A program made the position numbers and the translations under genes. A stretch of 33,865 nt of DNA from Candidatus Moraniibacteriota bacterium (GTDB taxonomy: Bacteria > Patescibacteriota > Minisyncoccia > Moranbacterales > UBA9337). The notes below the pieces were generated by a model. It ran no database searches. It was given only the letters and a program-made list of their open reading frames with translations, and was not told the origin of the DNA. The stretch spans positions 1 through 33,865 of the forward strand of contig DOKP01000084.1 of the NCBI GenBank assembly GCA_003510795.1. Direction: 5' to 3'. Position 1 is the stretch's first letter. Each line of letters starts with the position of its first letter. This document shows, in pieces, positions 6,686 to 33,638 of this stretch.

Positions 6686-6765
6686 AGGTTTGTTCCTAGT
6701 CGGTTTTAAGCGACTAAGTGTACACCAATACTCCCTAGAAAGGAGGTGATTCGTGGGAGGAATTA

Positions 6766-7263: not shown

Positions 7264-7327
7264 GTAACTTAAAATGAAGAATTATTAATGGTTTCAGTAT
7301 AACTCAAACAGCCAAAAAAATCCATCA

Positions 7328-11643: not shown

Positions 11644-11892
11644 CTATTCCTCATCTGAATTATTTTCCAACTCTTTTTTTACATCATTAAATTCATTTTC
11701 AACTTCCTTAAGTCTAGCTCGGCTTAACTTGATGAGTTCTACTCCTTCTTTGACTTTTTCCAATCCTTTTTCAACATCAACCTCTTCTTGGTTATCAAAC
11801 CAATCGGAAATTGCTTCCAGTTTTTTTAATGATTCTGATAAATTTGAATTTTCCATATTTTTTAAGTTATTTATTAATAATTTTTTTAACAC
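11644..11892 (-). CDS. xseB: Exodeoxyribonuclease VII small subunit
   Basis: SESLKKLEAISDWFDNQEEVDVEKGLEKVKEGVELIKLSRARLKEVENEF follows the XseB helical-hairpin pattern. It overlaps the end of xseA. An alternative ATG lies at 11856. Confidence 0.65.
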   Translation of the reverse strand: MLKKLLINNLKNMENSNLSESLKKLEAISDWFDNQEEVDVEKGLEKVKEGVELIKLSRARLKEVENEFNDVKKELENNSDEE

Positions 11893-13519: not shown

Positions 13520-14287
13520 TTATTTAGCATCTCTATTATATTTCTCAATTTGAACTGATATTAACTTTATTCTATCTGCATCAAGTATATTTTTCTCATT
13601 TTTTAGAAATGATGGTAATGCTTTTTGGTTTAAAACCCAAACATCAGCACCTCTCGGCTGTGGCTCGATAAACCAATCTGGAAAAATAACCACTGGTCTC
13701 ACATCCATTTTTATTCCAGTTGAGTCTGAAATATATTCCTGAAGCCAATATGCCTGTGATTTTGCTTGAAATATAGTGCTTCTATCGATACCCAGCCCAT
13801 CAATTTTCATATTATCACCATCACGTTTAATCTTTTGAATCCCACTGAATTTACTCCTCACTTTTGTCTCAATAGTAAATGCTCCTGCAGGGCCAACAAT
13901 TATATGGTCAATATTAAACATTCCGTCAACAACTATGTCGTGAAACACTTTATACCCCACCTCTCTCATTTGCTCCAAACTTTGACCAACTATTTTTTCT
14001 CCATCTCTTCCTAGTTTGATATTTTTAAATTTTGTCCAAAGCTTTATGATCTTTGCCATAAAATACACCACAGCAACCAGTGCGATAATAGTCCAGATTA
14101 TTGGACTTGGGGGTTTGTTAAAAATTTTATCCGTCCATTCAATCAATGCAACAATAAAAAATACGAATATTATAAAAATATATGATATTAAATCATACAC
14201 AATATCCCTCATTTTTTCATCCAGTGACTGACCTGGGTTACGCAAAGGTCTATTTTTTAGTGGAGAATGCTTTTTATTTTCTAACAT
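13520..14287 (-). CDS. Membrane-anchored NERD (nuclease-related) domain protein
   Basis: Two N-terminal TM segments, then GRDGEKIVGQSLEQMREVGYKVFHDIVVDGMFNIDHIIVGPAGAFTIETK, the typical NERD core. Confidence 0.75.
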   Translation of the reverse strand: MLENKKHSPLKNRPLRNPGQSLDEKMRDIVYDLISYIFIIFVFFIVALIEWTDKIFNKPPSPIIWTIIALVAVVYFMAKIIKLWTKFKNIKLGRDGEKIVGQSLEQMREVGYKVFHDIVVDGMFNIDHIIVGPAGAFTIETKVRSKFSGIQKIKRDGDNMKIDGLGIDRSTIFQAKSQAYWLQEYISDSTGIKMDVRPVVIFPDWFIEPQPRGADVWVLNQKALPSFLKNEKNILDADRIKLISVQIEKYNRDAK

Positions 14288-16373: not shown

Positions 16374-17225
16374 CTATTCTCCTTTTTCCAACTCTGCTAA
16401 ACTTTTTCCATTTTCATCTTTCCATTTGTCCCGTCCAGTGTTAGCATAACTTAATATAATATTTGAAGCGGAACTTGGACTGTTGAAAATATAATCCCTT
16501 ATAAATACATAGCTATTTTTGTTTACCGAATCCAGTTCAATAATTTTCTCTTCAATTAAAAAATTCTTCATTTTTTTGCTGCTTGCCAATGTCGGTTCCG
16601 AAATAGAAGCAGTTGAGCCTTGTAACACTTCAAACCCCCCATCCACCTGTCTTCCCTTAGCATATACTCCAGCTCCTTTGCAAAATAATATGTCGCCTGA
16701 AGGTTCATTTTTTTCATTCACTTTTTCTCCATTTAAAATTGGCGAAAGTATCGGATAACCCAGGGCCGACATTAAAATTGAAAGATTGGAAAGATATTCA
16801 TTGGCTTCCGCTTCTTCTGCTTCGTTTAATTTTCTTGGTTTAGCATTGTTTTTATTTTCCAAAACACATCTCTTTTCCTTAACTGCCATTTCCAAACATT
16901 TATTTTCCAGATACTCAATGTTACCGCCAAAAAAAGCGATAACTATTTGCCAAAAATCCTTTTTATAATCGTGGTCAGTCAATCGTTCTTTCAAATTATT
17001 GGCTTTGCCTATATACACACGATGGAGTCCGCTTTCTTCTGGTTCGAGTGACAGAAGAAAATATACTGCTGGACTAAAAAATTCTTCTCGGCTAAAAAAC
17101 TCCCTTAACTTGTTTCTGGGGACTGAAACAGCTTTACCGCTCCAATTACTTATCTCAATGGTTTTCATCCCCATCGGATTTCCTTCAGCTAAAAAAATCT
17201 TTATTGTTTTTGGTGTGCTTAGCAT
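16374..17225 (-). CDS. GIY-YIG-like N-terminal domain plus DUF4357 C-terminal domain protein
   Basis: VYFLL...RVYIGKANNLKERLTDH is GIY-YIG-like. The C-terminus GGFEVLQGS...FIRDYIFNSPSSASNIILSYANTGRDKWKDENGKSLAEL is DUF4357-like. The ATG at 17225 is preferred over the TTG at 17261. Confidence 0.7.
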   Translation of the reverse strand: MLSTPKTIKIFLAEGNPMGMKTIEISNWSGKAVSVPRNKLREFFSREEFFSPAVYFLLSLEPEESGLHRVYIGKANNLKERLTDHDYKKDFWQIVIAFFGGNIEYLENKCLEMAVKEKRCVLENKNNAKPRKLNEAEEAEANEYLSNLSILMSALGYPILSPILNGEKVNEKNEPSGDILFCKGAGVYAKGRQVDGGFEVLQGSTASISEPTLASSKKMKNFLIEEKIIELDSVNKNSYVFIRDYIFNSPSSASNIILSYANTGRDKWKDENGKSLAELEKGE

Positions 17226-17229
17226 AGTT

Positions 17230-17448
17230 TTAATTATTTTTCGTGACCGAATATGGAACAACTATAATCATTTTTTCGCATCTCGGACAAGATAAATCAA
17301 AATTAATTGTTGATTCTTCGTCGTAGTCTTCTCTTAAAGCATCTTTCGGCAACCCACCCCAGGGGCAAACGGGACATTTAATTATTTCGTTCTTATCATA
17401 TTCTTCATATGGGACGACTTTTGCTTGAACATCTTTTTCTTCAAACAT
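17230..17448 (-). CDS. Small zinc-ribbon protein
   Basis: 72 aa with CPVC...CPRC. Its stop is 4 nt before the next ATG. Confidence 0.5.
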   Translation of the reverse strand: MFEEKDVQAKVVPYEEYDKNEIIKCPVCPWGGLPKDALREDYDEESTINFDLSCPRCEKMIIVVPYSVTKNN

Positions 17449-18174: not shown

Positions 18175-18196
18175 AAAAATTAACTCATAATCTCAA
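18175..18196. repeat. 22-nt exact direct repeat, copy 2 (covers the res stop codon and the last codons)
   Basis: Identical to 16014-16035. Confidence 0.9.
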
Positions 18197-20924
18197 GTAC
18201 CTTTTCAACTCTTTTAAATTTAACGTCATTCAATTGTTTGAAATGTTTCTCTCCACAATAAATCTTCTGCTCCTCACTTTTTCTAAGTTCTCCTTTTGAT
18301 TTTGTTTCCGCTACAAAGTAAATCTTTTTATCATTTTCCAATACTATCGCCCAGTCTGGATTATATGAACCAATTGGTGTTTGAATCTTAAACCAATAAG
18401 GTAATTTAAAATAAAATTTAACTTCTTCAATTGACTCTAAATCCTTAGCAAACTGACCTTCTACACTGGAATGGGAATCTACTATGATATGGTCGTAAAG
18501 TGTTTTTTCTTCATTTTGAACCTTAACTACATTATCTAGATAGCTATGCAATTCATCATTTTCAAATAACTCCATCGCATAAAAACTATTTTCACCTTTC
18601 AATTTCTCGTATTTAATACCATCAATCATTAATTTTTCCAGTCCTTGTTTGATAATATTAGTAGCAAAATCCATAAACTGCTGTGGATTTTTATCTATCT
18701 CGTTACCCTTGCCCGACTCCTGAATAATTTTTAATATCGTATCTTTAGTAAGTTTTGTTTTATTTTGAATATAGCCTAAAATATCTGGAATCATTTTATT
18801 ATTCGTACCATATTCTATTTTCTTCTCACTCACGCTGGAAAGCATAGTCGTAACGCCTTCACTTGTAATGCCGACCTTCGCCTTAAGACTGACAATTTTT
18901 GGAGCGATTATGTCTACTTTAGCAAGCTCTGCTCCAACTAACTTAACCAGCTCTTCAGTTTTGTACTCCACTCGATATTGTGTCTTGTGTTTTATTTTTT
19001 CCCATAGCTCTTTAAAATTTTCATTTAGTTTATATGCTTTTGTAAGCCTTACTTTCACTTCTCTTCTCTTATTTTTAATCCGTCCACCAAACTCAACACT
19101 GCAATCATCCTCAATTTCAGTCTGAAGTTTTTTGGCAAAATCCTCATATCTCTCATTGGCAATAACAGTTAACACATTTATGTTATCATCAAAGATTCTT
19201 TGTCCATCTTGATTAACAGGGAGACGAAGTCCTCTTCCTATTTCTTGACGTTTTTTAATTTCGCTTTGTGTTTCGTTAAGTGTGCAAATTTGAAACACAT
19301 TAGGATTATCCCATCCCTCACGAAGAGCAGAATGTGAAAAGATAAAGCGAAGTGGCTCTTTGGCTGATAATAATCGTTCTTTATCTTTCATAATCAACGA
19401 ATATGTATCATTATCCAAAATACTATCACCTTTCGTATCTTTTAATTGTCCTTTTTTGTCTTGTGAAAAATATCCGCCATGTACTTCTTCAGCTGAATTG
19501 AAAGTTATGCCAGCAAAAATAGGATTAACTTTTACCTCATTAAATATCTCTTCAAACCACTCGGCAATCTTTCCCTTTTTAACTATGCTATCTGCATACT
19601 CTCTGTAATTTGCTACTCTATCGATAAAAAATAATGATAGTACCTTTATGCCCTTATCTTTAAGCCTCTTTTCTTTTTCGAAATGATTAACGATAGTCTG
19701 CCTTATTTGAAGCTTCATTATGTCTTCCTTGAATCCTCCCCAGCTTTCACCCACAAAGATTGTTTTTCCATTGGAAAATGTAATTGACTGAGCTGTTATA
19801 TCTACCGCGTCAACGACATAATCTTTATATATTTCTCGCTCACCTGATAGCTTATGTAAATCACACTCAGTTCTGGTTCTAGATGATTTTTTGATAGTTA
19901 CAGTTTTTCTTTTAATTCCAGTCTTTTCATTCACATCAATTTTAAGCTTCACGCAAATAGCATTTTTCTGAGATGCCACTGATTCCAACTCTATATAAGG
20001 ATCATTTTGATTGTTTTCCTCTAAAACCGAATCCACTTCAATCTTTTTTACCAATCCCAAATCATAAGCTCTTACTGGGTCTAATTTATAAATTAAATTA
20101 TAATGATGTTTGTGTGTAGCTGAATAACGAAGAGTACAAAGAGGATGAAGATTGGCAATTGCTCGCTTTCTGATTTCCGTTTCCATATTTTGCGGTTCAT
20201 CCACAATTACAATAGGCTTTACTGCTTGGATATATTCTATCGGCACGCCCCAATCACTTTTTTGATATATAATATTGCCTTTCTTCTTCTCTTGGCTAAA
20301 TTTAGCAAAAGAATCAATATTAATAACCACTATTTGAATTGAGTTGTTTGTAGCAAAGTTTTTAAGCAATCCCCTCTTTTTAGGGTCATATACATAAAAG
20401 TCCATTTCTGGATTATCATAAAGAACATTAAAATGCTCCTTAGTAATTTCTAAGTTTTTTATAACACCTTCTTTGATGGCAATGCTGGGAACAACGATAA
20501 TAAATTTTTTAAATCCGTATTTTTTATTTAACTCATGAATGGTTCGTAAGTATACATAAGTCTTTCCAGTTCCAGTTTCCATTTCAATCGAAAAATTTAA
20601 ACCATCTTTGAGTTTTTGCGAAGATTCACCATATCTTCTTTCTCCATATTTAAAAGTTCCAAATCTAGTGCTTAAGTTTTCAATGTCGGACTTTTCTAAT
20701 TTATTTTGCTCTTGAATTCTGTGAAGATTTTTAATTATTTCAGCTTCCTTAACTAACAAATTATTCCCTACTACAAATCCGCCATCGATAATCATCTGAC
20801 CGCTATCTCTTTTTATCTCCAATTCAAAATCTCCCTTGCTTAGAGGTTGACCATTAAATAAACCCACAACTGAGTTTATCGCGTCTATTTGGTATTGTTG
20901 ATTTGAATCAAATTGTAGCTTCAT
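18180..20924 (-). CDS. res: Type III restriction enzyme, Res subunit (SF2 helicase plus C-terminal PD-(D/E)xK nuclease)
   Basis: METGTGKTYVY (motif I), IVIVDEPQNM (motif II), QEIGRGLRL (motif VI) and NPDWAIV...FVAETKS (PD...ExK). Confidence 0.85.
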   Translation of the reverse strand: MKLQFDSNQQYQIDAINSVVGLFNGQPLSKGDFELEIKRDSGQMIIDGGFVVGNNLLVKEAEIIKNLHRIQEQNKLEKSDIENLSTRFGTFKYGERRYGESSQKLKDGLNFSIEMETGTGKTYVYLRTIHELNKKYGFKKFIIVVPSIAIKEGVIKNLEITKEHFNVLYDNPEMDFYVYDPKKRGLLKNFATNNSIQIVVINIDSFAKFSQEKKKGNIIYQKSDWGVPIEYIQAVKPIVIVDEPQNMETEIRKRAIANLHPLCTLRYSATHKHHYNLIYKLDPVRAYDLGLVKKIEVDSVLEENNQNDPYIELESVASQKNAICVKLKIDVNEKTGIKRKTVTIKKSSRTRTECDLHKLSGEREIYKDYVVDAVDITAQSITFSNGKTIFVGESWGGFKEDIMKLQIRQTIVNHFEKEKRLKDKGIKVLSLFFIDRVANYREYADSIVKKGKIAEWFEEIFNEVKVNPIFAGITFNSAEEVHGGYFSQDKKGQLKDTKGDSILDNDTYSLIMKDKERLLSAKEPLRFIFSHSALREGWDNPNVFQICTLNETQSEIKKRQEIGRGLRLPVNQDGQRIFDDNINVLTVIANERYEDFAKKLQTEIEDDCSVEFGGRIKNKRREVKVRLTKAYKLNENFKELWEKIKHKTQYRVEYKTEELVKLVGAELAKVDIIAPKIVSLKAKVGITSEGVTTMLSSVSEKKIEYGTNNKMIPDILGYIQNKTKLTKDTILKIIQESGKGNEIDKNPQQFMDFATNIIKQGLEKLMIDGIKYEKLKGENSFYAMELFENDELHSYLDNVVKVQNEEKTLYDHIIVDSHSSVEGQFAKDLESIEEVKFYFKLPYWFKIQTPIGSYNPDWAIVLENDKKIYFVAETKSKGELRKSEEQKIYCGEKHFKQLNDVKFKRVEKVLEIMS

Positions 20925-20930
20925 AGAAGT

Positions 20931-21938
20931 CTATCTCAAAATTGTTATTTTTCTATCTAAATTAAGTTTTGGCTTCTTTGTTTTTTTATCTATTATTAAT
21001 TCTATATTTTCTGATATCCAGCCAGATTCTATTTCCTCCTCAAAACTTGATATTTTAGATAAATTTTCAAATCCTCGTTTGTACTCTATTTTCATACCTA
21101 GTGCTATTCCCAATTCTATAAAAATAAGATAAGATTCTTCCGTTTCATCATAAATATAAAAGTTTTCAATATCTATAAAATCTATATCAAAATCGATGAC
21201 TTCATATTCATCATATTTAGTACCACAATCGCTATCAGTATTCTTATCAAACACATCGTTTGCTATTAATTCGTAAATATGGTTACGGACAGCGTCACTT
21301 TCAATAAAAGTGTCAAGATACTCTCCATCTAAAAATTCAAGCTTTTTTCCATGCATTGATAAAAATTCTTCCAGAGAATTAAAAAACTCTATTGATAATT
21401 CTCTAGATTTTAAGTCAGCCAAAAGCTCCTCTTTGAGAACTGAACTTCCAAAAGCTTTCTTGTCGTTAGAAATAAAACAAATTTTCTCACTCTTCGGAAT
21501 ACTCTTAGCTATTTCCAAAACTGCAAACCATATTAATGAATCCCTAAAGCCTCTACCAGTGGAGTCAAAAGGGGTTTCTTTTTTAATAGCTCTCTTTATT
21601 ATCTCAGGATAAGAAATGTCTAATTTTTCCAAAGCCACTTCATCTATAATATCCTTATATATATTTATATGATTTTCTATATATTTTTCAAACTCTTTAA
21701 TAAAGCTTGAGCTATCAATAAAATTTGGTTTTCTAGCAAAAACTTTTACAGAAGAATTATGAGCTAGAACAAATTTTCCAACTTCTTCTTTATATTTTTG
21801 CAACAACTCATCTTTAACAACGGAAATTAAAAATAACTTAGAGCTAGTTTTTGGCAAGTAATCGAACAAACCAATAAACTTAGGAGAATTAAAAAAGTAA
21901 TTGTTGTAATATATATTTGTATCTAAAATCACATTCAT
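20931..21938 (-). CDS. PIN-like (DUF4935-type) domain protein inserted between mod and res
   Basis: MNVILDTNIYYNNYFFNSPKF...LISVVKDEL resembles the N-terminus of PIN-like DUF4935 proteins. The ORF track extends to a TTG at 21959. The stop is 6 nt before the res ATG. Confidence 0.55.
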   Translation of the reverse strand: MNVILDTNIYYNNYFFNSPKFIGLFDYLPKTSSKLFLISVVKDELLQKYKEEVGKFVLAHNSSVKVFARKPNFIDSSSFIKEFEKYIENHINIYKDIIDEVALEKLDISYPEIIKRAIKKETPFDSTGRGFRDSLIWFAVLEIAKSIPKSEKICFISNDKKAFGSSVLKEELLADLKSRELSIEFFNSLEEFLSMHGKKLEFLDGEYLDTFIESDAVRNHIYELIANDVFDKNTDSDCGTKYDEYEVIDFDIDFIDIENFYIYDETEESYLIFIELGIALGMKIEYKRGFENLSKISSFEEEIESGWISENIELIIDKKTKKPKLNLDRKITILR

Positions 21939-22037
21939 AATAATATTGAGTATATTCAATAAATAATTTAATCAGGCTAAACTAATAGTTTTCGTTCTTC
22001 CCTAAAACAGTTAAAATTCTTACTTGTAAACATGTTT

Positions 22038-23948
22038 TTATATAACTTTAAAATCAATCTTCTCCTGCTCCATCTGGAGGGAAATATTGGTTTTAAGCTG
22101 GTCATTATTTTGAAAACACCCATCTAGACAGATAAACTTTTCTGGTTTTGATTTTTGAATTTCCTCTGCCATCTCTTCAGTTATTTTTTTCCCAAGATAC
22201 ACGATTAGTTTTCCACCGTCCAATAAGTAATATTTATCATCTGCGAATTTTTTTTCTTCAATTGAGATATTCAAGTCTAATCCGCTTTTTAGAATTAACT
22301 CAAATAAGATATTTTCTTCTTTACTTCCACTCTTAATATTATCTACAAAATCCGCCATATTGCCTAATAGACTTTCAGAATTTTCAAATTTACCCTGCCA
22401 AATTTTGAAGTTAGATTTATCTAATTTTAAAGACTTGAATCCCAAATCAATATTGCTTTTATTTTCCTTTCCAATTTTATCTCCAGCTCGTCTAATTCTC
22501 TCTTTTCCAATCTCCGCAATATTTTTATATCCTGCTTTATATGCCTCGCTTCCTTCATCACAAAGTTCTGGAAGCTGAACACAAATCCACTTTCTGTCCC
22601 CCTTGTCTTTTGCGTTCTGCTCCATAACTGCGTGGGCGGTAGTTCCAGAGCCAGCAAAAAAATCCGCTATTAAATCAGAGTTTTTGGAAGCAATACTTAT
22701 TAAATGCCGAATTAAATCTGTTGGCTTTGGATATGAAAATGGCATTTCATTATTAAATAATTTCTTTAATTCTTTTTTTCCATCACCTGTCGATGCTATA
22801 TTTACCAACAGTGATGTTGGTATTCTTCCATATGACAATAAATTGCCGTATTCATCTTTAATTATTTCCTCTTTCTTTTCATTTATATATTGTTTATACA
22901 TAACCCTCCATTCTTTTTCACCATTCTCTGGTTCGAAAAAAACTATTCTATTATTTTCAGTTCTCCAATCAAAACGATTCTTATCGCATCTCCACCTGTG
23001 CTCTCTGCCATTTAAAATTGTTCCATCTGGACAAGTTATGTCGTAATGTAATCCGGGCCTATCGCCAATACTAAAGTCATTTAAATTTCTCAGTCGGAAT
23101 TTTCCTCGCGTTTTAATATATTCATCTTCCAATACATAGCCCTTTAACATATCTTGAGATGGTAGTAAGTTGTAGAAAAAACTATTTTCTAAATTTTTAG
23201 TGTAACACAATATATATTCGTGAGTTATTGCTATGTACTTATTGTCATTTTGGGTTCCTGCACCTTTTTGCCATACTAATTGAGCTACAAAATTTTCTTC
23301 TCCAAATATCTCATCCATTATTGTTCTAAGATTTTTCACTTCATTATCATCAATAGACACAAAAATAACCCCATCTTGCTTAAGAAGATTTCTAGCTAAA
23401 AATAATCTCGGATACATCATGTTGAGCCAATTGGAATGATAGTGCCCACTGTCTTTTGCATTTCTTGAGAGCCCATCCACTCGAAGAGTGTTTCCAATAT
23501 CATCTTTTTCTCCAATTGATTCTAAATATTCATCTCTATTCTCTTGAAATTTGTCGTTATAGATAAAATCATTCCCAGTATTGTAAGGTGGGTCTATATA
23601 AATCATCTTTATTTTTCCATAATAAGAACGCTGAAGAACCTTGAGAACTTCAAGGTTATCGCCCTCTATGAAAAGATTTTGTGTCTGGTCAAAATCAAAC
23701 GATTCATCCTTGGCTGGTTTTAATGTTGCGGTAGTTTGCTCCTGAATTACTTTAAAGCAATTATTTTTACCAGCCCAACTCAATCCATATCTTTCATTAC
23801 TATCATCCACTTCCTCACCTAGCGTTTGTTTAAGCTTTTTACAGTCAATCTTTCCTTCTGAAAAAATCTCTGGCAAATCCGATTTAAGAAAGCTTAATAT
23901 TTCTTCTTGTTTATTTAAAGATGAGCCCTCAATCTTATTTTTATCCAT
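22038..23948 (-). CDS. mod: Type III R-M DNA methyltransferase, Mod subunit (beta-class N6A/N4C)
   Basis: IYIDPPYNTGNDF (motif IV) precedes DFFAGSGTTAHAV (motif I), with a variable region between them. Confidence 0.85.
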   Translation of the reverse strand: MDKNKIEGSSLNKQEEILSFLKSDLPEIFSEGKIDCKKLKQTLGEEVDDSNERYGLSWAGKNNCFKVIQEQTTATLKPAKDESFDFDQTQNLFIEGDNLEVLKVLQRSYYGKIKMIYIDPPYNTGNDFIYNDKFQENRDEYLESIGEKDDIGNTLRVDGLSRNAKDSGHYHSNWLNMMYPRLFLARNLLKQDGVIFVSIDDNEVKNLRTIMDEIFGEENFVAQLVWQKGAGTQNDNKYIAITHEYILCYTKNLENSFFYNLLPSQDMLKGYVLEDEYIKTRGKFRLRNLNDFSIGDRPGLHYDITCPDGTILNGREHRWRCDKNRFDWRTENNRIVFFEPENGEKEWRVMYKQYINEKKEEIIKDEYGNLLSYGRIPTSLLVNIASTGDGKKELKKLFNNEMPFSYPKPTDLIRHLISIASKNSDLIADFFAGSGTTAHAVMEQNAKDKGDRKWICVQLPELCDEGSEAYKAGYKNIAEIGKERIRRAGDKIGKENKSNIDLGFKSLKLDKSNFKIWQGKFENSESLLGNMADFVDNIKSGSKEENILFELILKSGLDLNISIEEKKFADDKYYLLDGGKLIVYLGKKITEEMAEEIQKSKPEKFICLDGCFQNNDQLKTNISLQMEQEKIDFKVI

Positions 23949-24070
23949 ATTTTATAATATATATTGTAAATTTATGTATTTTTATAATACCGCCATACAG
24001 CTATAAAGTAAAGAAATTAAGCCTCCAATACGCCAAATTTTAGCTTTTGTGCGATTCTTTGTCGTAATTA

Positions 24071-24092
24071 GTAAAAGCTATATAGCTTTTAC
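24071..24092. promoter_or_regulatory. Perfect 22-bp palindrome between the upstream operon and mod
   Basis: gtaaaagctat/atagcttttac. This may be a second terminator or an operator, and lies about 125 bp upstream of the mod ATG. Confidence 0.35.
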
Positions 24093-24105
24093 TCTTTTTA
24101 TACAC

Positions 24106-24132
24106 AAACAGCCAGTTTTTAGCTGGCTGTTT
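24106..24132 (-). terminator. Intrinsic (bidirectional-looking) terminator after 24156..25010
   Basis: aaacagccag pairs with ctggctgttt around a small loop, with U/T-rich sequence on both sides. Confidence 0.6.
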
Positions 24133-24155: not shown

Positions 24156-25010
24156 CTATCGGCAACCTTCCATTTCACTTCCCCAAGTCTGTCTTTCCAC
24201 TGTTTTAGATTTTAAATCTCCACTGCCCATCTGAGTTAATACTTTGAAAAAGTTTGTCGGCCCAGAATCCGCCCAAGTCTTATCAGTTGATTCTCTAGCG
24301 TCATCACCTCCCATACTTGTGCTTATATATCTTCTGGCATTAAATCTAACTTTTGCGATATTCTTTTTAGCTACTGCATCAGTAAATAATGCCTTCATTA
24401 CATCGAAATTCATCTGCTTTGCTAGGGCACAGCTTCCTGCATCTGTATTTATGACAACTTCAAATGGGGATACTGCTTTAACATTTGGATTTTTACCGAA
24501 CAATGACACCTCGTAATTAGCTCCTATATTTTTAACAATAGTTTCAATTCTCTCTTTTGGCTCTGTTGGCAAATTCTGAGCTACCTTGCTTTCAACTGGT
24601 TGCACTGCTTGCTGAGTTTTAGCAAGTTTTCCCTCTGCCTCTTCTGTTTGTATCTTGTAAGTCGAAAATGAAATAATCAAACTGACAGCTACACTACCTA
24701 AGATTATAAGCATTATATACAAACCGACTCTGGAAGTTTTTTGAGGAACTTGAGGTGCTATTTGAATTTCTGGATTATTTTGCTGTTCTGCCATTAACTT
24801 TTGCCCCATCGGAGTATCTGTTGGGATCATATTTTCGCTTCCGCATTTTGGACAAACATTTTTCTTGGCACCGCCTCGACTCCAGATTGAGTAGACAATG
24901 CCTGGGATTAAGAAGAAACACCATAGTATAAATTCAACGAGTCCATTTCCCCTTGCTTTTTTGTTCATTTCGCCTGCGTATCCGCAGAGCGTGCAGATTA
25001 GATTCGACAT
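24156..25010 (-). CDS. Membrane protein with an N-terminal split zinc ribbon flanking a TM hairpin
   Basis: CTLCGYAG...(LVEFILWCFFLIPGIVYSIW)...CPKCGS, a second TM (LYIMLIILGSVAVSLIISF), then a soluble C-terminal domain. Confidence 0.6.
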   Translation of the reverse strand: MSNLICTLCGYAGEMNKKARGNGLVEFILWCFFLIPGIVYSIWSRGGAKKNVCPKCGSENMIPTDTPMGQKLMAEQQNNPEIQIAPQVPQKTSRVGLYIMLIILGSVAVSLIISFSTYKIQTEEAEGKLAKTQQAVQPVESKVAQNLPTEPKERIETIVKNIGANYEVSLFGKNPNVKAVSPFEVVINTDAGSCALAKQMNFDVMKALFTDAVAKKNIAKVRFNARRYISTSMGGDDARESTDKTWADSGPTNFFKVLTQMGSGDLKSKTVERQTWGSEMEGCR

Positions 25011-25029
25011 TTTTATTATTGTTAATTAA

Positions 25030-25485
25030 TTAAATGTTTTTAATTTGTTTATTAAATTCATAAATACTTTTAAACTCTTTCGCATTATTTTTGGTTAATT
25101 TCAATCCCCATTCAGGCTTACTTTTTTTATTTTCGTAATCATTATCACAGAAATATTTATGTTCCATAGTATTCCATTCTAGCGATGGCACAAGGCACAA
25201 TGTCGGCAGTGCATCTTCTTCAAAAATAATTAATGCCAAGATCATATTTTCTCTAAGATGGAAAACTTCTTTTCGCATAAATACATAGTTGTAGTTTCTC
25301 ACCGATTTTACTTGAATATCATAATGTTCACTATCATTTTTCCTAATCACAAAATCTATGCCCTTATCATCTACCTCTGAAGTGTAAACATCAAAGCCAG
25401 CTTTGGTAAATTCCATCTTGGCAAAATACTCGCCATATTTTCCCAGTTGCAGATGACTTAATTTTGACCAGTTGTTGTTTTCCAT
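25030..25485 (-). CDS. Small PD-(D/E)xK-like (restriction-endonuclease-fold) protein
   Basis: GKYGEYFAKMEFTKAGFDVY...DDKGIDFVI...YDIQVKS resembles the G..GE...helix, D and (E/Q)xK layout of YraN/Hjc/DUF4365-type nucleases, here with Gln in place of the acidic residue. Confidence 0.45.
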   Translation of the reverse strand: MENNNWSKLSHLQLGKYGEYFAKMEFTKAGFDVYTSEVDDKGIDFVIRKNDSEHYDIQVKSVRNYNYVFMRKEVFHLRENMILALIIFEEDALPTLCLVPSLEWNTMEHKYFCDNDYENKKSKPEWGLKLTKNNAKEFKSIYEFNKQIKNI

Positions 25486-25501
25486 ATTATTTTTTTATAA
25501 C

Positions 25502-25531
25502 AAAAAGGGACAACCCTTAATTGGATTGCCC
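25502..25531 (-). terminator. Intrinsic terminator 16 nt upstream of the 25485 ATG
   Basis: On the minus strand, GGGCAAUCC-aauuaa-GGGUUGUCC (9 bp including 2 G-U pairs), then C and UUUUU. Confidence 0.6.
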
Positions 25532-25641
25532 TAGCCGACAAAGACTGGTAACGCACCTTTCAGAGTTGCCCCTTACTATGCGTTACCTAAAAACTTCGCA
25601 ATGATTAGTTGCTTTATTTTTTGTCGGCTAGGTATTTAATT
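25502..25641 (-). ncRNA. Candidate ~140-nt structured RNA (leader, riboswitch-like element or sRNA) with its own promoter and terminator
   Basis: A locally GC-rich segment. 12-bp P1 CCUAGCCGACAA/UUGUCGGCUAGG (25621-25632 with 25530-25541). 9-bp P3 GGUAACGCA/UGCGUUACC (25579-25587 with 25547-25555). Small hairpin GCAA-N7-UUGC. Terminator at the 3' end. Confidence 0.45.
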
Positions 25642-25647
25642 AACTTC

Positions 25648-25676
25648 ATATTACCTTCTTAAAGAGCTTTGGTCAA
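25648..25676 (-). promoter_or_regulatory. Promoter driving the structured RNA
   Basis: On the minus strand, TTGACC (25671-25676), a 17-nt spacer and TAATAT (25648-25653). It abuts the Int2 stop codon and shares gaaggTAATAT with the 9923 promoter. Confidence 0.55.
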
Positions 25677-26537
25677 TCAGTTTATCTCCGCCAGCCTCAC
25701 CTCCTTTCTCAATTTTGATTTGTCTATATGTAAATATCTTTCAGTTGTTGAAATATTTTTATGCCCTGCTAGAATCTGAATTGTTTTTAAATTTACACCC
25801 TTCTCTAACAGTCTCGAGCAAAAACTATGCCGTATGCTATGCACTGAAATATTTGGCTTTTTTATTCCAGCCAATTTTAAATACTTCTGAATAAGCATAC
25901 CTACTCTTCTTTGAGTAATTCTTTTTTTAAAACTGCTAAAAAACAATGGCTCGTCCATCTCCTTATTTTTATATGCCTGCTTAATTTTTCTTGCCAGCTT
26001 TGCGTTTATCGGAATGCTTTGTTTCTGTCCGCCTTTTCTTTTAATAATAATCGTCTTGGCTTTTGCATCAATATCGCCTGCATCCAAATTAACCAGTTCT
26101 GAAATGCGAATACCAGTCTCAATGAAAATAGTCACTATTAACTCATTTCTTTTTTGATGTTTAGATTTATCTTTTTTAATAATTCCAATTAGTTTTTTTA
26201 ATTCAGCCTCGGTCAAATAACTCGGTTCTTTTTCTTTAACTTTAGGCATCGCAATATTTTTGACTGGATTATTCTTTATCAAATTCTCGCTTTCTAAAAA
26301 TTGAAAGAAATTCTTGAGTGAAGTAAGTTTTCTCCTTCTCGTAATTGGCTGGTTATTTTTCTCCGCTAAAAAGCAAAGGAACTCACGAATGTGAGCCCTT
26401 GCCAATTTGTTAAATGATGACTTTTTAATGAATTTGACGAATTCCGATAAGTCTCGAGTGTAAATCTCAATAGTTCTTTCGCTTAAGACTTTTTCTATGC
26501 GAAGATAATCCAAATATTGTTTTATGTATTTTTGCAT
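25677..26537 (-). CDS. Tyrosine recombinase, XerC/D-like (Int2)
   Basis: ETGIRISEL, HSIRHSF and LAGHKNISTTERYLH. Confidence 0.9.
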   Translation of the reverse strand: MQKYIKQYLDYLRIEKVLSERTIEIYTRDLSEFVKFIKKSSFNKLARAHIREFLCFLAEKNNQPITRRRKLTSLKNFFQFLESENLIKNNPVKNIAMPKVKEKEPSYLTEAELKKLIGIIKKDKSKHQKRNELIVTIFIETGIRISELVNLDAGDIDAKAKTIIIKRKGGQKQSIPINAKLARKIKQAYKNKEMDEPLFFSSFKKRITQRRVGMLIQKYLKLAGIKKPNISVHSIRHSFCSRLLEKGVNLKTIQILAGHKNISTTERYLHIDKSKLRKEVRLAEIN

Positions 26538-27185: not shown

Positions 27186-28718
27186 TTATTGATATTTTCT
27201 CCACTCTTCTAATTCTCTGAGAGTGGGGAAATTGTTTTTAGGATTAATAATCTCTATTTTCTCTTTACTTTTAACTCTTGCTAAATTAGGCTTTTTTTCT
27301 TCTCTTAACTGTTCTTGAAATTTATCAATGCTGGGTGCATCAGTAATAATGAATCCCGCTTCGATTTTTCTCACTCCTGATATCTGCATCAACGCCACTG
27401 ACAGAGCCATGGCGTGGTCTGAATACTGCGAGCTGGGATGGTCAAAGCGATAACCGTAACTTTTTTGAAAAAGATTCAAAGATAACAGTTCTCTTTCCAG
27501 TTGCTTGTGCGGAAAAAATTTCACCAATCCGTTATGGATAAAATAATATAAGTTACGACTTAACTTCTCCACATTGGAACCAGTAAAAGTAAATTCTTCA
27601 ATCTTGCAATATCGCTTCAATCTTTCAATTGTTCCTTTTAAATTCCACGGGTCAACTATAATATTAAGCTTTGGGAAATTTTTGGAAGCGATAAGCATAT
27701 CTTCTTCAATATCGACAATTTTTACTGGATTATTTCTATCCCCTGACCATGTCCTGATATCATCCACAATCACAACGCCCGACTCTTTATCTTGGTGAAG
27801 TATCACTGAAACTGTGCGGTCTTTGACTAAGCCAAGGTCACATCCATAATAATATTCGTTACTTTCCTCACCTTTGAACTTTGGTTTAAGAAATTCATCT
27901 CGGCATTGCATCACATCCTCTCTGGTAAAAAAACTATTTTCTCCAGCTGTCCATTTATTTTCCCAAAATCTCTGAAACACTGCTGGCGGAAGTTCTCGTC
28001 TTCGCTCTTCTATAAATTCTTTGGTTATCCAACTTACTTGCGGTTTATGCGACCAATGAAAATACATTTTTGGATTTTCCTTATTTAATCCTTTTTCATA
28101 TAGTTCAAAAAGGGGAGTGACGGTATTCGTTCCCGCGTAAGTCACAATGAATCGAAGGGGTTGTTTTCTCGTTGGAGAAAATTGCAGAGCATCCAACAAA
28201 TCTCTATTCTTTTGACTCCAAATTTCATCCCCTATAACTACCTGCGGATTTAAGCCGTGTGCCGAGAAGCTATCTGAACTCAATACCTTATAAATATTGC
28301 CTGTCGAAGGGACAACAATTGAATCACGATAAATTTTTACGCTGTCTAACAATATCGGATTTCTCTCAATGGCTTTTTTGGTTTTACTCCAAATAATAGA
28401 AGCTTGGTCTTTATCTGATGCGATAGAATAAATTTCATTTGGCTCGTCAAAGATAGGGTCGCAAAATAGCATATACAGAGCTACGCCCGAAGCTAAACTG
28501 GATTTGCCCGACTTCTTAATCATTCCAATAAGAGCATCGTTATATATCCTAAGCCCATTTTTATCTTTGGTTTGAAATATATCATTTAGAATTTTTTTCT
28601 GAATCGGCTCCAATACTATCGCCCTACCACTTTCCAAAAAATATTGCTCTTCTAAAAAAACGCATATATCATTTTGATACTCAATAAGTTTCTCCGTCGT
28701 TATCGGTTGCATCTTCAT
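27186..28718 (-). CDS. Phage terminase large subunit
   Basis: P-loop GMIKKSGKSS, Walker B VVIGDEIW, a size of about 510 aa, and a position directly after a small-terminase-like gene. Confidence 0.75.
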   Translation of the reverse strand: MKMQPITTEKLIEYQNDICVFLEEQYFLESGRAIVLEPIQKKILNDIFQTKDKNGLRIYNDALIGMIKKSGKSSLASGVALYMLFCDPIFDEPNEIYSIASDKDQASIIWSKTKKAIERNPILLDSVKIYRDSIVVPSTGNIYKVLSSDSFSAHGLNPQVVIGDEIWSQKNRDLLDALQFSPTRKQPLRFIVTYAGTNTVTPLFELYEKGLNKENPKMYFHWSHKPQVSWITKEFIEERRRELPPAVFQRFWENKWTAGENSFFTREDVMQCRDEFLKPKFKGEESNEYYYGCDLGLVKDRTVSVILHQDKESGVVIVDDIRTWSGDRNNPVKIVDIEEDMLIASKNFPKLNIIVDPWNLKGTIERLKRYCKIEEFTFTGSNVEKLSRNLYYFIHNGLVKFFPHKQLERELLSLNLFQKSYGYRFDHPSSQYSDHAMALSVALMQISGVRKIEAGFIITDAPSIDKFQEQLREEKKPNLARVKSKEKIEIINPKNNFPTLRELEEWRKYQ

Positions 28719-29289
28719 CGTCTTGGATTATGATCTCAGCCATTTTATTTTTTGTTAGACTGGCTCGCTGGAGAGCTTCTGCAAAACAAAATGACTGCAC
28801 ATTGGTTAAATTAAGTCTCGCTCTTGCCTGAGGTCCGATACCTAATGCATCCGCTTGTTTCAACACTATTCGCTCATAGTTGATTTTCATTGCCATTATG
28901 GGCTGAACGTCCAATCCTGATTCTTTGGCTTGGAAAGGGCCGATATTTGCCACCCAGCGTTCAATTATTATAAGGAAGCAGTAATTTTTAACGAATCTGT
29001 CCACTATATATTTATCTATGGGCTTTATATACTCTAGAGCAAATATTTCTTCATAAATCTCATCTTGAAGCTCCAAGATAGCCCGGCAATGCTTCTGGTC
29101 TTTTTTAAATTGCTCGCATTCAGAAGAAAAGATGCATTGATTGCAACTAGGTACTGGTGCAATATTTTTTCTGAAAAATTCAAAAGCTCCGTGTTTTCTT
29201 TGCACCTCAAGATTGTTTTTAACAGCACTTAATCCCTCTTCTGAAAAATTACGAACTGCGGTTTTCGATTTTGATTTATATATTGCCAT
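28681..29289 (-). CDS. Putative terminase small subunit (P27-family-like)
   Basis: It overlaps the TerL start by 38 nt. The C-terminal QADALGIGPQARARLNL resembles the conserved tail of P27-type small terminases. Confidence 0.45.
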   Translation of the reverse strand: MAIYKSKSKTAVRNFSEEGLSAVKNNLEVQRKHGAFEFFRKNIAPVPSCNQCIFSSECEQFKKDQKHCRAILELQDEIYEEIFALEYIKPIDKYIVDRFVKNYCFLIIIERWVANIGPFQAKESGLDVQPIMAMKINYERIVLKQADALGIGPQARARLNLTNVQSFCFAEALQRASLTKNKMAEIIIQDDEDATDNDGETY

Positions 29290-29292: not shown

Positions 29293-29925
29293 CTATTTTT
29301 GCTTTAAATAAAGGTCGCATAATAAGTATAATTTCTCACCCCTGTTTTTTCCTTCGATTTTTTCCAGAACTCCGCTGATGAATTCTCCCTGCTGTTTTGA
29401 TACAGCAAAATTTATTATCACTGGTATTTCTTTTTCTCTTTCCACTGAATCTTTTCTGATTTTTTCCATAAATTCTTCGGTTACCTGTGTAAGCGATAAC
29501 TTATCTTTCAAATCTGCTACTCCAAAACCTAGCTTGCTCGATAATTCCTCCAGCGTGTATTTATTGTTAAGCTCTGTTATAAGTTTTGCTAGCTTTAACG
29601 GATTTATTTCGCCTCGTTTAGAATTAAGGGCTATGGTTACTATTTTCTGGTGGTCTTCATCTTTCGGATTAAAAACAGTAATAGGAATCTTTTTAAAGTT
29701 AAGCAAAGTTGCAGCTCGCCAACGATGATAACCGTCTATAATTTCAAACTTTCCATTTTTATTTTCTGCAACAATGACTGGTTGTCCTATCCAACCATTT
29801 TCCTTAAAATCCTCCATTAAGCTTTTGAATGTTCCATCCCCCATAATGTTTGGGTTATATTTATTGGGCATCACCTCAGTAGTTTTTACCATTATAATTT
29901 CTGAATAAATTTTTTCTTTGCTCAT
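29293..29925 (-). CDS. ParB-like nuclease (ParB N-terminal) domain protein
   Basis: YNPN...GQPVIV...IIDGYHRWRAA. Confidence 0.75.
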   Translation of the reverse strand: MSKEKIYSEIIMVKTTEVMPNKYNPNIMGDGTFKSLMEDFKENGWIGQPVIVAENKNGKFEIIDGYHRWRAATLLNFKKIPITVFNPKDEDHQKIVTIALNSKRGEINPLKLAKLITELNNKYTLEELSSKLGFGVADLKDKLSLTQVTEEFMEKIRKDSVEREKEIPVIINFAVSKQQGEFISGVLEKIEGKNRGEKLYLLCDLYLKQK

Positions 29926-29926
29926 A

Positions 29927-30994
29927 TTATTTTGTTACGATTAAATATTCTACACAGTCTTCTTGTTTTTTGCCTGACTTGGATGCGATATTATTTAACG
30001 CCCAAGTGTGCTCTAAAAAATACAAGTCTGCATCTCTGAACTTTTTAACTATTGCTAATAACTCTTCACCTCTTACGCCTGTTTCAGACACAGGATTGTA
30101 GCCCATACTTATGACCCATTTTGGAATAAATTCTGAAAGAGCAAACAGCTTCTCAAAATTTTCTAACACATCTTTGGTATTAAAGGCTTTGTCATCTATT
30201 TTTACTCCCGTTTTTTCTTCCAATATTTCATCCAACACTTTGTAATGGCTGGAATACATCGTGGAATTATAGTAAGGGCTATCAAAATATGCCGTGTCTA
30301 TTTTCTCTCCTTTCTCTTTCATTAACTTTAGAAATTCGAAACAATCCATTTGATACATCTCATTCTCCTTTCCATTGTTGAAAATCCCAGCATTAATTTG
30401 TTCTTTTAATCTGAGAAGTGAAGGCAATGGATGCGAAAGATTGTATTTTATTTTTTTGCCCCGCGATTCACTAGCCAGTTCCAAAAGTTCGATTTCTCTG
30501 TTTTCCAAAATCATCTCGTTATCCTGCTTTCCCACCTGAAAAGCTCCATATTGCCTCAACGATAAAATATATTTTACAACGAGCAATAATAGCAATTCTT
30601 TTTTGGGACTTTCTCTTTTTCTGGCATTGGCAAAAAAGTTATCCAAGTCTTTTGCTACTTTGGGAATAAATATTTTGGGTACATAATAATTTTTCTCTAT
30701 AAAACCATTATTATTTTCTGCGGGAATAAATAAACTATACACGTCCGCATCAGTCAATTTCACTGTACTATTTGAAATTAATGCATCTCCGATAATTTTG
30801 CTTCTATAGGCAATGTCATTGGAAATTACTCTCATACCTTTTTGTTTTCCCTTCAATGACACGCTTCCACCGCCGAAAAATACATCGCAAAGTGCTTCGC
30901 CTTGAAAATGAGAGCTTATAATTCCAGACATTTTTCTCTTGCCCCCTAAGAAGGGTAGCGTGGCATTATCAATCCTTAGATTATTACTTGCCAT
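29927..30994 (-). CDS. Dam-like (D12-class) N6-adenine DNA methyltransferase
   Basis: PFLGGKRK, FFGGGSV (motif I) and AYFDSPYY (a DPPY variant). The ATG at 30994 is preferred, because the ORF-track start at 31027 is TTG. Confidence 0.65.
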   Translation of the reverse strand: MASNNLRIDNATLPFLGGKRKMSGIISSHFQGEALCDVFFGGGSVSLKGKQKGMRVISNDIAYRSKIIGDALISNSTVKLTDADVYSLFIPAENNNGFIEKNYYVPKIFIPKVAKDLDNFFANARKRESPKKELLLLLVVKYILSLRQYGAFQVGKQDNEMILENREIELLELASESRGKKIKYNLSHPLPSLLRLKEQINAGIFNNGKENEMYQMDCFEFLKLMKEKGEKIDTAYFDSPYYNSTMYSSHYKVLDEILEEKTGVKIDDKAFNTKDVLENFEKLFALSEFIPKWVISMGYNPVSETGVRGEELLAIVKKFRDADLYFLEHTWALNNIASKSGKKQEDCVEYLIVTK

Positions 30995-31241
30995 CTTTTT
31001 TTGCCATTTCTTTCGCTTCTTTTTCAATTTCTGAAAACATAAAGCGACAAAGGATAGCGATTATTTTGCCTCGTCCAGATATTTCATATCTTTCTTTAAA
31101 ATATCTCTCCAGTTCCAAAAATAACTGCCGTTGCTCTTCGAAGAGGGATATAAATTCTTGGGAGAACTTACGATTGGTTACTTTAATATCTGAGTTTCTA
31201 ATTTTTTCTTCCAGTGTTTCCACTTCAATTTGTTTTTTCAT
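30984..31241 (-). CDS. Hypothetical small protein
   Basis: An 85-aa helical ORF with no motif. Confidence 0.4.
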   Translation of the reverse strand: MKKQIEVETLEEKIRNSDIKVTNRKFSQEFISLFEEQRQLFLELERYFKERYEISGRGKIIAILCRFMFSEIEKEAKEMAKKDGK

Positions 31242-32726: not shown

Positions 32727-33638
32727 TTACTTAAAATCAATATTCATAACTTCACTATGTGCTCGTTTTACTTCAGCAAAACTTGAATCTCCTAAATAAT
32801 ATCGCTCAGTGACCTGAGGTGAAGAGTGCCCCAAAAACTGCTGAACCGTAGATAAAGAAACCCCTTGATGAAACATATAGCTACTAGCGGAACGTCTTAG
32901 CGTATGTGGCGTGACTTTGAGTCCCACTTTTCGCCCTTGATTTCTTAGTGCTCTTTGCAAATCATTTATTTGCCACCTTTTTGGAGAACTGGAATTGTGA
33001 GTGCAAAATAGGCATTCATGATTATCTACTCTTTTTTCCAAATATTTCCCCAAATATTCAAGTGCAACTGAATTTAATATTTTTTTCTGAATTTTCCCTC
33101 CCTTAGTCCTAGTTTCAAATACTCCAGTTTGAAAATCAATATCTCTGTGATTAAGGGATAGCAACTCAGACACCCGACATCCGCAGGAAAAGAGACATAG
33201 AATTACAGTCTTTAACCTCAGCCTAGTTATACTACGTCTATCATCAATTGAATCTAATAGTCTTTGTATTTCTTCTTTTTTTAAGAACTCTATCTTTTTT
33301 CTCGGTTCTATAAATTTTTTAATTTTTACCGAGTCATAAACATCAATTCCCTCCTCATTTTTCACAAAAGATAACAAATTTCTCAAGACAACGAGATAAT
33401 GATTTTTTCGTGGAGGACTCAATCCCTTTAGGTTTAACTCTTTTTTTAATTTAGTTATAGAGTCAGCGTCAATCTTTCTGATATCTATATCTTCTAATAT
33501 TTTAATCACCCTAGGGGCAACTTCTATATATTTATTAATTGAACTCCACGCCAATTTCAAATTGGCACTTACATTATCGAAATATCGTTCAAAGCATTTC
33601 GAGAGCTTGTATTTTTCACTACTAAATAAAAACATCAT
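32727..33638 (-). CDS. Tyrosine recombinase / phage-type integrase (Int3), paralogous to Int1
   Basis: CGCRVSEL, HTLRRSA and LGHSSPQVTERYY. It is 303 aa and can be aligned by eye along its whole length with 7328..8239. Confidence 0.9.
   Translation of the reverse strand: MMFLFSSEKYKLSKCFERYFDNVSANLKLAWSSINKYIEVAPRVIKILEDIDIRKIDADSITKLKKELNLKGLSPPRKNHYLVVLRNLLSFVKNEEGIDVYDSVKIKKFIEPRKKIEFLKKEEIQRLLDSIDDRRSITRLRLKTVILCLFSCGCRVSELLSLNHRDIDFQTGVFETRTKGGKIQKKILNSVALEYLGKYLEKRVDNHECLFCTHNSSSPKRWQINDLQRALRNQGRKVGLKVTPHTLRRSASSYMFHQGVSLSTVQQFLGHSSPQVTERYYLGDSSFAEVKRAHSEVMNIDFK

Follow-up and report, generated by a model that had tools for sequence, protein, structure and literature searches.

The DNA analysed here, referred to as the window, is the contig DOKP01000084.1 of a Candidatus Moraniibacteriota bacterium (assembly GCA_003510795.1), with a length of 33,865 nucleotides (nt), and the subject of this study is a structured leader RNA predicted on its reverse strand, between the gene for a tyrosine recombinase and a unit of two genes encoding proteins of 151 and 284 amino acids (aa). 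The leader, its helices (P1, P2 and P3), its pseudoknot and the adjoining genes are arranged as follows, in the direction of transcription.

25677-26537, reverse strand: XerC/D-like tyrosine recombinase gene (Pfam Phage_integrase, 6.9e-38), ending 45 nt upstream of P1
25648-25676, reverse strand: promoter-like site, with the -35 element TTGACC at 25676-25671, a spacer of 17 nt and the -10 element TAATAT at 25653-25648
25503-25632, reverse strand: leader RNA domain (P1-P2-P3, pseudoknot strand, terminator and U-run), its extent being that of the covariance-model match
25620-25632, reverse strand: P1 5' strand CCUAGCCGACAAA, part of a perfect inverted repeat
25598-25612, reverse strand: P2, the small hairpin GCAA-CUAAUCA-UUGC, from the RNA fold; optional in the family
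25579-25587, reverse strand: P3 5' arm GGUAACGCA, from the inverted repeat
25562-25574, reverse strand: pseudoknot 5' strand AAGGGGCAACUCU in the P3 loop, complementary to 25506-25518
25547-25555, reverse strand: P3 3' arm UGCGUUACC, from the inverted repeat
25530-25542, reverse strand: P1 3' strand UUUGUCGGCUAGG, whose final two G also belong to the terminator 5' arm
25531-25503, reverse strand: terminator-like hairpin with T-run, ending 16 nt ahead of the ATG at 25485
25523-25531, reverse strand: local terminator 5' arm GGGCAAUCC, from terminator prediction
25503-25518, reverse strand: shared 3' segment AAGGGUUGUCCC with the U-run, being both terminator 3' arm and pseudoknot 3' strand
25030-25485, reverse strand: DUF4365/Mrr_cat-like gene for the 151-aa protein, the first gene after the leader, with its ATG at 25485
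24156-25010, reverse strand: gene for the 284-aa zinc-ribbon membrane protein, the second gene after the leader
24070-24132, no strand assigned: terminator-like hairpins closing the two-gene unit, from terminator prediction

An earlier reading of this DNA (the original prediction) had described a promoter TTGACC-N17-TAATAT after the integrase stop codon, a 12-bp closing helix, a 9-bp helix with a 23-nt loop, a small hairpin and a strong terminator 16 nt before the ATG, in a unit closed by its own terminators. All of these elements are present at the positions listed above, and only the length of the closing helix had to be corrected: in an inverted-repeat scan, P1 is a perfect repeat of 13 nt (CCTAGCCGACAAA/TTTGTCGGCTAGG). 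P3 is a perfect 9-nt inverted repeat (GGTAACGCA/TGCGTTACC) with its arms 23 nt apart, and its loop holds the segment GGGGCAAC (25564-25571), which is similar to the terminator 5' arm and, as had been noticed, complementary to the 3' arm segment GUUGUCCC with one G.U pair. The fold of 25486-25650 on the reverse strand has a minimum free energy (MFE) of -53.3 kcal/mol with z = -5.8, and none of 200 shuffled sequences was as stable. A search for tandem and direct repeats in the leader region found none, and a tRNA/tmRNA scan gave no match.

The phylogenetic distribution of the leader was followed from the relatives of the 151-aa protein, which were found in 41 genomes, the closest being Candidatus Moranbacteria, members of the candidate phyla radiation (CPR). 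In three of these Candidatus Moranbacteria loci (L003, L004 and L005; 82-94% amino acid identity), the same leader architecture lies upstream of the gene, again after an integrase gene, with helices of different sequence: P1 is CCUAGUCCGCUUAAA/UUUAAGCGGACUAGG in L003 and CCAGUCGCAAAACCA/UGGUUUUGCGACUGG in L004, and P2 and P3 are changed on both sides as well. Neither the loop core nor the terminator 3' arm differs, except in L003, which has AGGGCAAC with GUUGUCCU. From the two conserved segments a DNA search pattern, GGGCAAC-N38-68-GGTTGTCCYTTT, was derived, which occurs in 18 places in IMG/VR, 4 of them clearly leader elements, and in at least 120 places in metagenome contigs. Inspection of the pattern matches together with the protein relatives gave at least 65 distinct sequences whose P1 extends over 10-27 bp up to the terminator, carried by three Candidatus Moranbacteria genomes, at least about 60 metagenomic contigs and 4 IMG/VR phage contigs, with one leader copy per locus; this and the other family counts given below (65, 61, 59 and 58 sequences) are among the matches listed from metagenomes. 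P2 is replaced by hairpins of other sequence in L003, L004, L176 and L179 and is absent from short members such as L050 and L053. As about 10% of shuffled sequences also contain a lone P1 of at least 10 bp, it is the ensemble that carries the case, and counting enclosing MFE pairs failed to discriminate members; membership was decided by a covariance model and by covariation.

This covariance model (A5/R1) was built from 14 non-CPR metagenomic members that had been found via the window-derived pattern, with no CPR sequence in the seed. Model R1 matches the window end to end at 25503-25632 on the reverse strand with 46 bits (E = 6e-7), scores 43-48 bits on L003-L005, finds again about 60 of the loci that carry the pattern, and leaves out the matches due to chance. 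The original prediction could not assign the fold to a known riboswitch class, and the Rfam searches agree with it: Rfam 15 gave no match in the window at the gathering threshold, a permissive search of 25300-25800 returned only noise at E >= 1, and in 20 member loci no Rfam family matched the leader element. A blastn search of 50,697 isolated-phage records with the window leader and two members gave no real match, and a tblastn search of the same kind of phages with a neighbouring large serine recombinase found nothing. In IMG/VR, the exact P1 pattern had no match, as is expected because P1 covaries, and patterns with A-U or G-C in place of the core G.U gave chance matches only. A pattern fixing only the local terminator returned L050, L053 and two non-members, too few for an unbiased test, and a search for drifted leaders beside relatives of a neighbouring gene found none. 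In the published literature, searched by motif sequences and for prophage leader, pseudoknot and terminator RNAs, the family is undescribed; the 10,006 viral candidate RNAs of Fremin et al. 2023 were not compared. Judged by its sequence, the leader is a member of a predicted family of leader RNAs that is widespread, previously uncatalogued and absent from Rfam.

Conservation and covariation at homologous loci had been named as the check on the fold, and about 65 further sequences have the same helices with compensatory changes. In an alignment of 59 sequences, P1, P3 and the pseudoknot together contain 93.5% standard pairs, compared with 70.7 ± 0.6% in shuffles, and the covariation score of 0.571 compares with 0.160 in shuffles, none of 500 of which reached it, and with at most 0.09 when the partners are slid, the shuffle statistics being inflated because the family sequences are related. 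Compensatory changes affect every modelled pair of P1 (13 of 13) and of P3 (8 of 8) in the model-based alignment, and the covariation of P3 is also seen in a MAFFT-only alignment. The alignment model held the local terminator and not the pseudoknot, so that the pseudoknot counts were not fitted: one position of the pseudoknot extension has the pairs UA, AU, CG and GC 16, 15, 9 and 3 times, and other positions have UA 21 and CG 17 times, or CG 14 and GC 14 times. Contiguous pairing 3' of the core averages 3.95 bp, compared with 1.80 bp with swapped partners, and the C after GGUUGUCC is always matched by a G before GGGCAAC. Wobble pairs are nearly all U(5').G(3') (at P1 positions, U.G 13-15 versus G.U 1), an asymmetry that identifies the transcribed strand and rules out a repeat at the DNA level only.

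A site resembling a -10/-35 promoter precedes P1 across the family, with a mean best score of 8.2 out of 12, compared with 5.3 at random positions; a score of at least 9 out of 12 is reached by 44% of members and by 3% of random positions. The distance from the end of the -10 element to P1 is usually 4-7 nt, and about 15 nt in CPR members. These scores show the leader to have a putative promoter of its own directly upstream, with the predicted start at P1 or a few nucleotides before it. In most members the next open reading frame (ORF) begins 0-60 nt past the U-run, which indicates that the RNA is a leader rather than a gene of its own beside one with a separate promoter.

The segment GGUUGUCC(C/U) with its U-run has two possible 5' partners, as the original prediction had proposed for the window, and the competition between them is conserved and covarying in the family. 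Pairing with the local arm, which is GACAACC-like, gives an ordinary intrinsic terminator hairpin, while pairing with the P3-loop strand, over 12-13 nt with the core GGGCAAC, gives an H-type pseudoknot. The loop strand consists of A-R-GGGCAAC and 4-6 further covarying nucleotides, and its pairing extends into the would-be terminator loop. The ACAACC equivalent of the local terminator 5' arm is kept at 88-93% across the family and is absent from the requirements of the search pattern. The local arm begins with 2-6 nt that also form the end of the P1 3' strand; this shared stretch is GG in the window, GAC in the majority of members and GACGAC in some others. As a consequence of this overlap, the P1 5' end (GUC or CC) resembles the terminator 3' end. 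In the window, the duplex of the loop with the 3' segment has a predicted energy of -21.7 kcal/mol, compared with -13.6 kcal/mol for the local hairpin; the family means are -23.6 and -7.3 kcal/mol, and the loop duplex is the more stable in 65 of 65 members, all loop-duplex energies being bimolecular and without pseudoknot loop penalties, which ViennaRNA cannot score.

Pairing of the A-run with the U-run shows no covariation (76% paired versus 74% when permuted), and the A-rich stretch 5' of the core probably lies outside the pseudoknot; judging from the geometry of H-type pseudoknots, it would be the linker needed to span the pseudoknot helix. Among members rich in Shine-Dalgarno (SD) sequences, L137, L084, L095 and L133 contain a second arm pair, GGRCARCC ... 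GGUUGUC, which lies 20-60 nt past the U-run and forms a hairpin covering the ribosome-binding site (RBS) and the start codon. In principle, the loop strand of these members could address two targets, and the position of the second arm pair at the RBS hints at coupled translational control.

The first downstream ORFs of 61 members have no common function, each family being found in at most four members. They include N6/N4 and D12 DNA methylases, SNase, GmrSD, DUF2726, NucS, YhcG-type PDDEXK and DUF4365 proteins, with five nuclease families overall, as well as DUF805 and zinc-ribbon membrane proteins and SLH-domain proteins. Upstream, the neighbours are integrases, tape-measure and tail proteins, endolysins, and Ltp-type or other superinfection-exclusion (Sie) proteins. 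Only recombinases recur as neighbours among the matches listed: a large serine recombinase does so in 15 loci and tyrosine integrases in 8, two unrelated families that occur within 0-4 kb of the leader in about a third of loci and are mostly divergent from it; a search among the neighbours for a co-occurring regulator found that integrases alone recur. Core 7-mers, counted elsewhere in the loci with regard to targets in trans, occur 11-19 times, compared with about 25 expected, and are not enriched. These neighbourhoods are classical slots of prophage accessory ('moron') genes, and on comparison of the loci the leader is a putative portable cassette for prophage and island cargo rather than a partner of the 151-aa nuclease-like protein.

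The 151-aa protein had been predicted to have a restriction-endonuclease fold. Its only Pfam matches are below the cut-off (DUF4365 with 19.7 bits against 24.3, Mrr_cat with 17.7 bits against 21), 15 of 27 homologues match DUF4365 weakly, PADLOC gives weak candidate matches, and a comparison with PDB sequences gave no match. The residues E19, D32, D44 and Q58-V-K60 are invariant among the homologues (an E..D..D..QxK pattern), and from these residues and the sub-threshold Pfam matches the protein is probably a PD-(D/E)xK nuclease. Orthologues occur in many phyla without the leader family: the region upstream of the orthologue in L002 is unstructured (z = +0.64), and model R1 had no match in archaeal, Acidobacteria and Bacteroidota loci of the 151-aa family. 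The 284-aa protein contains a zinc ribbon split by a transmembrane hairpin (CTLC ... transmembrane segment ... CPKC) and a second transmembrane segment, and has no Pfam or PADLOC match. By tblastn its gene has only partial relatives, in L004 and L003, and behaves as a variable neighbour; the effector-like gene pair of the original prediction is not upheld, the 284-aa gene not being conserved beside the 151-aa gene. The N- and C-terminal halves of the 284-aa protein are found separately in L004 and L003, which suggests domain shuffling.

A further observation concerns four sister Moranbacteria loci (L001, L006, L007 and L009), in which the orthologous DUF4365-like gene is accompanied by an unrelated structured leader (z = -7.2 at L001:3780-3997). 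In this L001-type leader, the loop GGUCUCGUGACCGACA of a hairpin CCUACGCGAAUAA/UUAUUCGCGUAGG pairs, with G.U pairs, with UGUCGGCUCGCGGGACC followed by UUUU about 70 nt downstream, and a third copy of CCUACGCGAA lies directly before the ATG. L009 shows compensatory changes, and R1 does not match. A loop complementary to the segment before the U-run in an unrelated leader suggests that the principle is broader than one sequence family.

On balance, and with moderate confidence, we favour the reading that the leader is a cis-acting attenuator of the downstream mRNA, belonging to a family that, in temperate phages and genomic islands, travels with or ahead of accessory genes of varying kind ('moron' or defence). 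A promoter-like site of its own and a terminator hairpin with U-run shortly before the ORF are found, as is an evolutionarily maintained alternative pairing that excludes the terminator, seen in the covariation of the loop with the 3' arm and in the 2-6 nt overlap with P1. The original prediction had seen the logic of a riboswitch or attenuator; the attenuator-type competition is supported, and the small-molecule part is not, given the heterogeneous cargo, the lack of conserved unpaired nucleotides outside the terminator 5' arm and a competition for the 3' arm, which is not the arm targeted in classical expression platforms. The leader would adopt two mutually exclusive states: in one, full P1 and the pseudoknot would each sequester one terminator arm, and in the other, P1 would be frayed and the local terminator hairpin would form next to the U-run. 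The balance between the states would set the share of polymerases that stop or read into the cargo gene, and stopped transcription would yield an RNA of about 130 nt with both ends base-paired. Most likely, the state with P1 and the pseudoknot would suppress termination, since both terminator arms would be sequestered, since the pseudoknot can nucleate on nucleotides emerging before the terminator 3' arm, and since termination is reportedly inhibited by stable structures that abut a terminator with no spacer, via competition for the RNA polymerase exit channel (bioRxiv 10.64898/2026.06.17.733018). The weakest step is the input, which may be kinetic (polymerase speed or pausing) or a protein factor rather than a small metabolite, the latter being disfavoured because the cargo is heterogeneous and no conserved pocket is present.

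Several points weigh against this attenuator. The invariance of the core is by construction, since the search pattern fixes GGGCAAC and GGTTGTCCYTTT, and only L003-L005 are unbiased in this respect; the inflated shuffle statistics and the bimolecular nature of the duplex energies, both given above, belong here as well. No signal or sensor element was found, the terminator 5' arm being the one conserved unpaired stretch. The local 5' arm is weak or absent in about 7-15 members (about 7 by hairpin energy), L074 and L162 among them, a count that is probably overstated in that some members hold the arm within the P1 3' strand, outside the folded segment, and the helix of a few members is followed by three U only; because of such members, the pseudoknot domain may serve a role apart from termination. 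The direction of the switch could also be the reverse of that proposed, as a helix on the segment next to the U-run could itself terminate; Yarnell and Roberts are said to have observed in 1999 that oligonucleotides annealed next to a U-run trigger termination. Finally, a fixed, unregulated leak is a serious alternative to a regulated switch.

A more far-reaching version of the attenuator is that of a portable, cargo-agnostic switch, in which a promoter and a pseudoknot would act as a 'double lock' on both terminator arms in hosts from CPR to SD-rich (Firmicutes-like) bacteria, turning accessory and defence genes on or off in response to a cellular or phage signal, for example an ion, an RNA-binding protein or the state of the polymerase. 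We put this forward tentatively and hold it to be rather doubtful. If true, it would be a new class of signal-responsive RNA regulator whose working part is the terminator 3'-arm pseudoknot.

The comparison with known systems places the leader close to attenuators and riboswitch expression platforms such as those of the pbuE adenine and ZTP riboswitches, with which it shares a promoter-proximal position, a terminator directly before the ORF, mutually exclusive pairings and an overlap of the terminator 5' arm with the 3' strand of the closing helix P1. It differs in that the competitor in those platforms targets the 5' arm, whereas that of the leader targets the 3' arm from a hairpin loop, forming a pseudoknot, and in that it has no conserved ligand pocket or Rfam match and its cargo genes are mutually unrelated. 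In the immunity RNAs CI of phage P4 and c4 of phage P1, a short sequence and its complements are repeated in the leader and their pairing decides premature termination; once processed, these RNAs regulate the early operon of the phage itself in trans. In the leader studied here, by contrast, the complementary copies are confined to the leader and the 5' untranslated region and the cargo is variable, and the Rfam family RF01695, used for this comparison, gave no match. The 'tug-of-war' antitermination described by Bushhouse, Fu and Lucks (bioRxiv 10.64898/2026.06.17.733018) likewise has a stable structure at zero spacer upstream of an intrinsic terminator, and the family has this geometry, with P1 (10-27 bp) abutting the terminator and overlapping its 5' arm by 2-6 nt. 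The leader would add a strand competition for both arms, and ligand dependence is not indicated.

Type III toxin-antitoxin (TA) loci and the abiF/RCd22-AbiF system (PMC12373285) resemble the locus in the order of promoter, structured non-coding RNA, leaky terminator and defence-type gene and in their occurrence in prophages and islands; the leader differs by having no repeats, no link to a single protein family and no match to abiF or any Rfam model. Processive antiterminators (HK022 put, EAR and Tn916 canT; PMC9378689, PMC11658703) are also cis-acting, orientation-specific RNAs just past a mobile-element promoter, in a setting where terminators act as insulators. The put, EAR and canT RNAs modify the polymerase to ignore distant terminators without pairing to the terminator (PMC9378689, PMC11658703), whereas the leader is complementary to its own adjacent terminator and shows no similarity to them in sequence or model.

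Among the other explanations, the stand-alone small RNA (sRNA) considered in the original prediction is held to be rather unlikely and is not favoured. The terminated product of about 130 nt would itself be functional, as a decoy, a sponge or a trans-acting regulator, and the cargo would use leak-through. Such an RNA would be in keeping with the promoter-like site and U-run terminator, with the high predicted stability of the product and with the independence of the family from cargo identity, and the two alternative 5' partners of the terminator 3' arm could be a fail-safe for termination. What makes it unlikely is the ORF 0-60 nt past the U-run, which leaves most members without room for a second promoter, so that the cargo depends on read-through, together with the lack of a conserved exposed single-stranded seed, the lack of enrichment of the core motifs elsewhere in the loci (11-19 versus about 25 expected) and the members with only three U after the helix. 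To a similar degree, we doubt that P1, P3 and the pseudoknot form a passive 5' module, that is, a constitutive insulator or stabiliser whose paired 5' end guards against 5'-dependent decay and whose self-contained fold keeps the RBS context constant, with the terminator merely trimming expression and no switching. P1 begins at the predicted start site or a few nucleotides from it, conserved sensor nucleotides are absent, the cargo is diverse and some members have no convincing terminator, all of which fit a passive module; the conserved local arm, the overlap with P1 and the covarying competing pseudoknot exceed a stabiliser's needs, however, and the second arm pair over the RBS in SD-rich members suggests regulated alternatives.

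A new class of small-molecule or ion riboswitch, with the pseudoknot as an aptamer (as in the preQ1, SAM-II and guanidine-III types) controlling the terminator, appears quite improbable. In its favour, CPR and SD-rich phage contigs have the same core down to the G.U wobble despite complete divergence of P1, P2 and P3, versions with A-U or G-C at the wobble have no members in IMG/VR compared with four for G.U, and the terminator overlaps the structure. Against an aptamer speak the lack of a common metabolic or transport theme in the downstream genes, the absence of conserved unpaired positions apart from the terminator arm (in an alignment of 58 sequences, no other well-occupied unpaired column is more than 90% conserved, and P2 and the junctions are variable or absent), the dispensability of P2 and the junctions, and the absence of an Rfam match even at E < 10; moreover, the core is constant mainly because the search pattern demands it, and very few IMG/VR sequences are involved. 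That the RNA is an antitoxin neutralising the 151-aa protein, in a type III-like TA or abortive-infection system such as ToxIN or AbiF-RCd22, had also been proposed, and the succession of promoter, structured RNA, terminator and putative nuclease gene does resemble type III loci and abiF/RCd22 (PMC12373285), in a window that is a defence island. We judge it very improbable, as tandem repeats are missing, the same RNA stands ahead of many protein families, methylases and membrane proteins among them, the RNA is missing from orthologous loci of the 151-aa protein in other phyla (z = +0.64 upstream in L002) and sister Moranbacteria bear a different leader. Least probable of all is a DNA-level element, be it the recombination site of the adjacent integrase, as suggested before, inverton repeats or a miniature inverted-repeat element. 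The tyrosine recombinase gene ending 45 nt upstream, the perfect 13-bp inverted repeats and the roughly one third of loci with an integrase within 4 kb would accord with it; conversely, that share is low for a recombination site, the helices are nested and the pseudoknot covaries, the wobbles are strand-asymmetric (U.G 13-15 versus G.U 1 at P1), the promoter lies outside the repeats, each locus has a single copy, and the integrases belong to two unrelated families and are often divergent or kilobases away.

If confirmed, the leader would represent a well-supported new family of structured RNAs with at least about 65 distinct sequences, found, among the matches listed, only in uncultivated phages and islands, including those of CPR bacteria, in which, to our knowledge, almost no regulatory RNA has been described. 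It would mean that prophage 'morons' and defence genes can use one RNA leader cassette regardless of their product, and would provide a handle for finding cargo genes and for understanding the limits of their expression in lysogens. Pairing to the 3' arm from a hairpin loop, with P1 holding part of the 5' arm, departs from textbook attenuators and makes the leader a natural test case for steric 'tug-of-war' antitermination.

Regarding the wider setting, the window is a mobile or defence island of a CPR bacterium (Moranbacteria), which carries these additional features.

1390-3675: two Fic genes
7328-8239, 25677-26537 and 32727-33638: three tyrosine recombinases
9406-9915: Macro
10352-11629: AbiJ
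11867-13357: ExoVII-large/HRDC fusion
13520-14287: NERD
14688-15998: DUF2130
16374-17261: PADLOC candidate PDC-S14
27186-29289: TerS/TerL
29293-31027: ParB-like gene and D12 methylase

Some minor observations were made at other loci. On L103, a LOOT RNA (RF03000, 82.8 bits; 1320-1432, reverse strand) lies about 800 nt upstream of a family member, and the phage-like contig L180, which bears another member, has a cluster of six tRNA genes at 6562-7619. Three loci that matched the search pattern by chance, L044, L047 and L085 (for example, L047:3529-3680), contain an AT-rich stretch surrounded by dense iterons, TTGGTTGTC / GACAACCAAG, that occur in either orientation, and these arrays are origin- or partition-site-like. 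In the window itself, the type III restriction-modification system at 18180-23948 carries a gene with a PIN_12 domain (20931-21959) between Mod (22038-23948) and Res (18180-20924).

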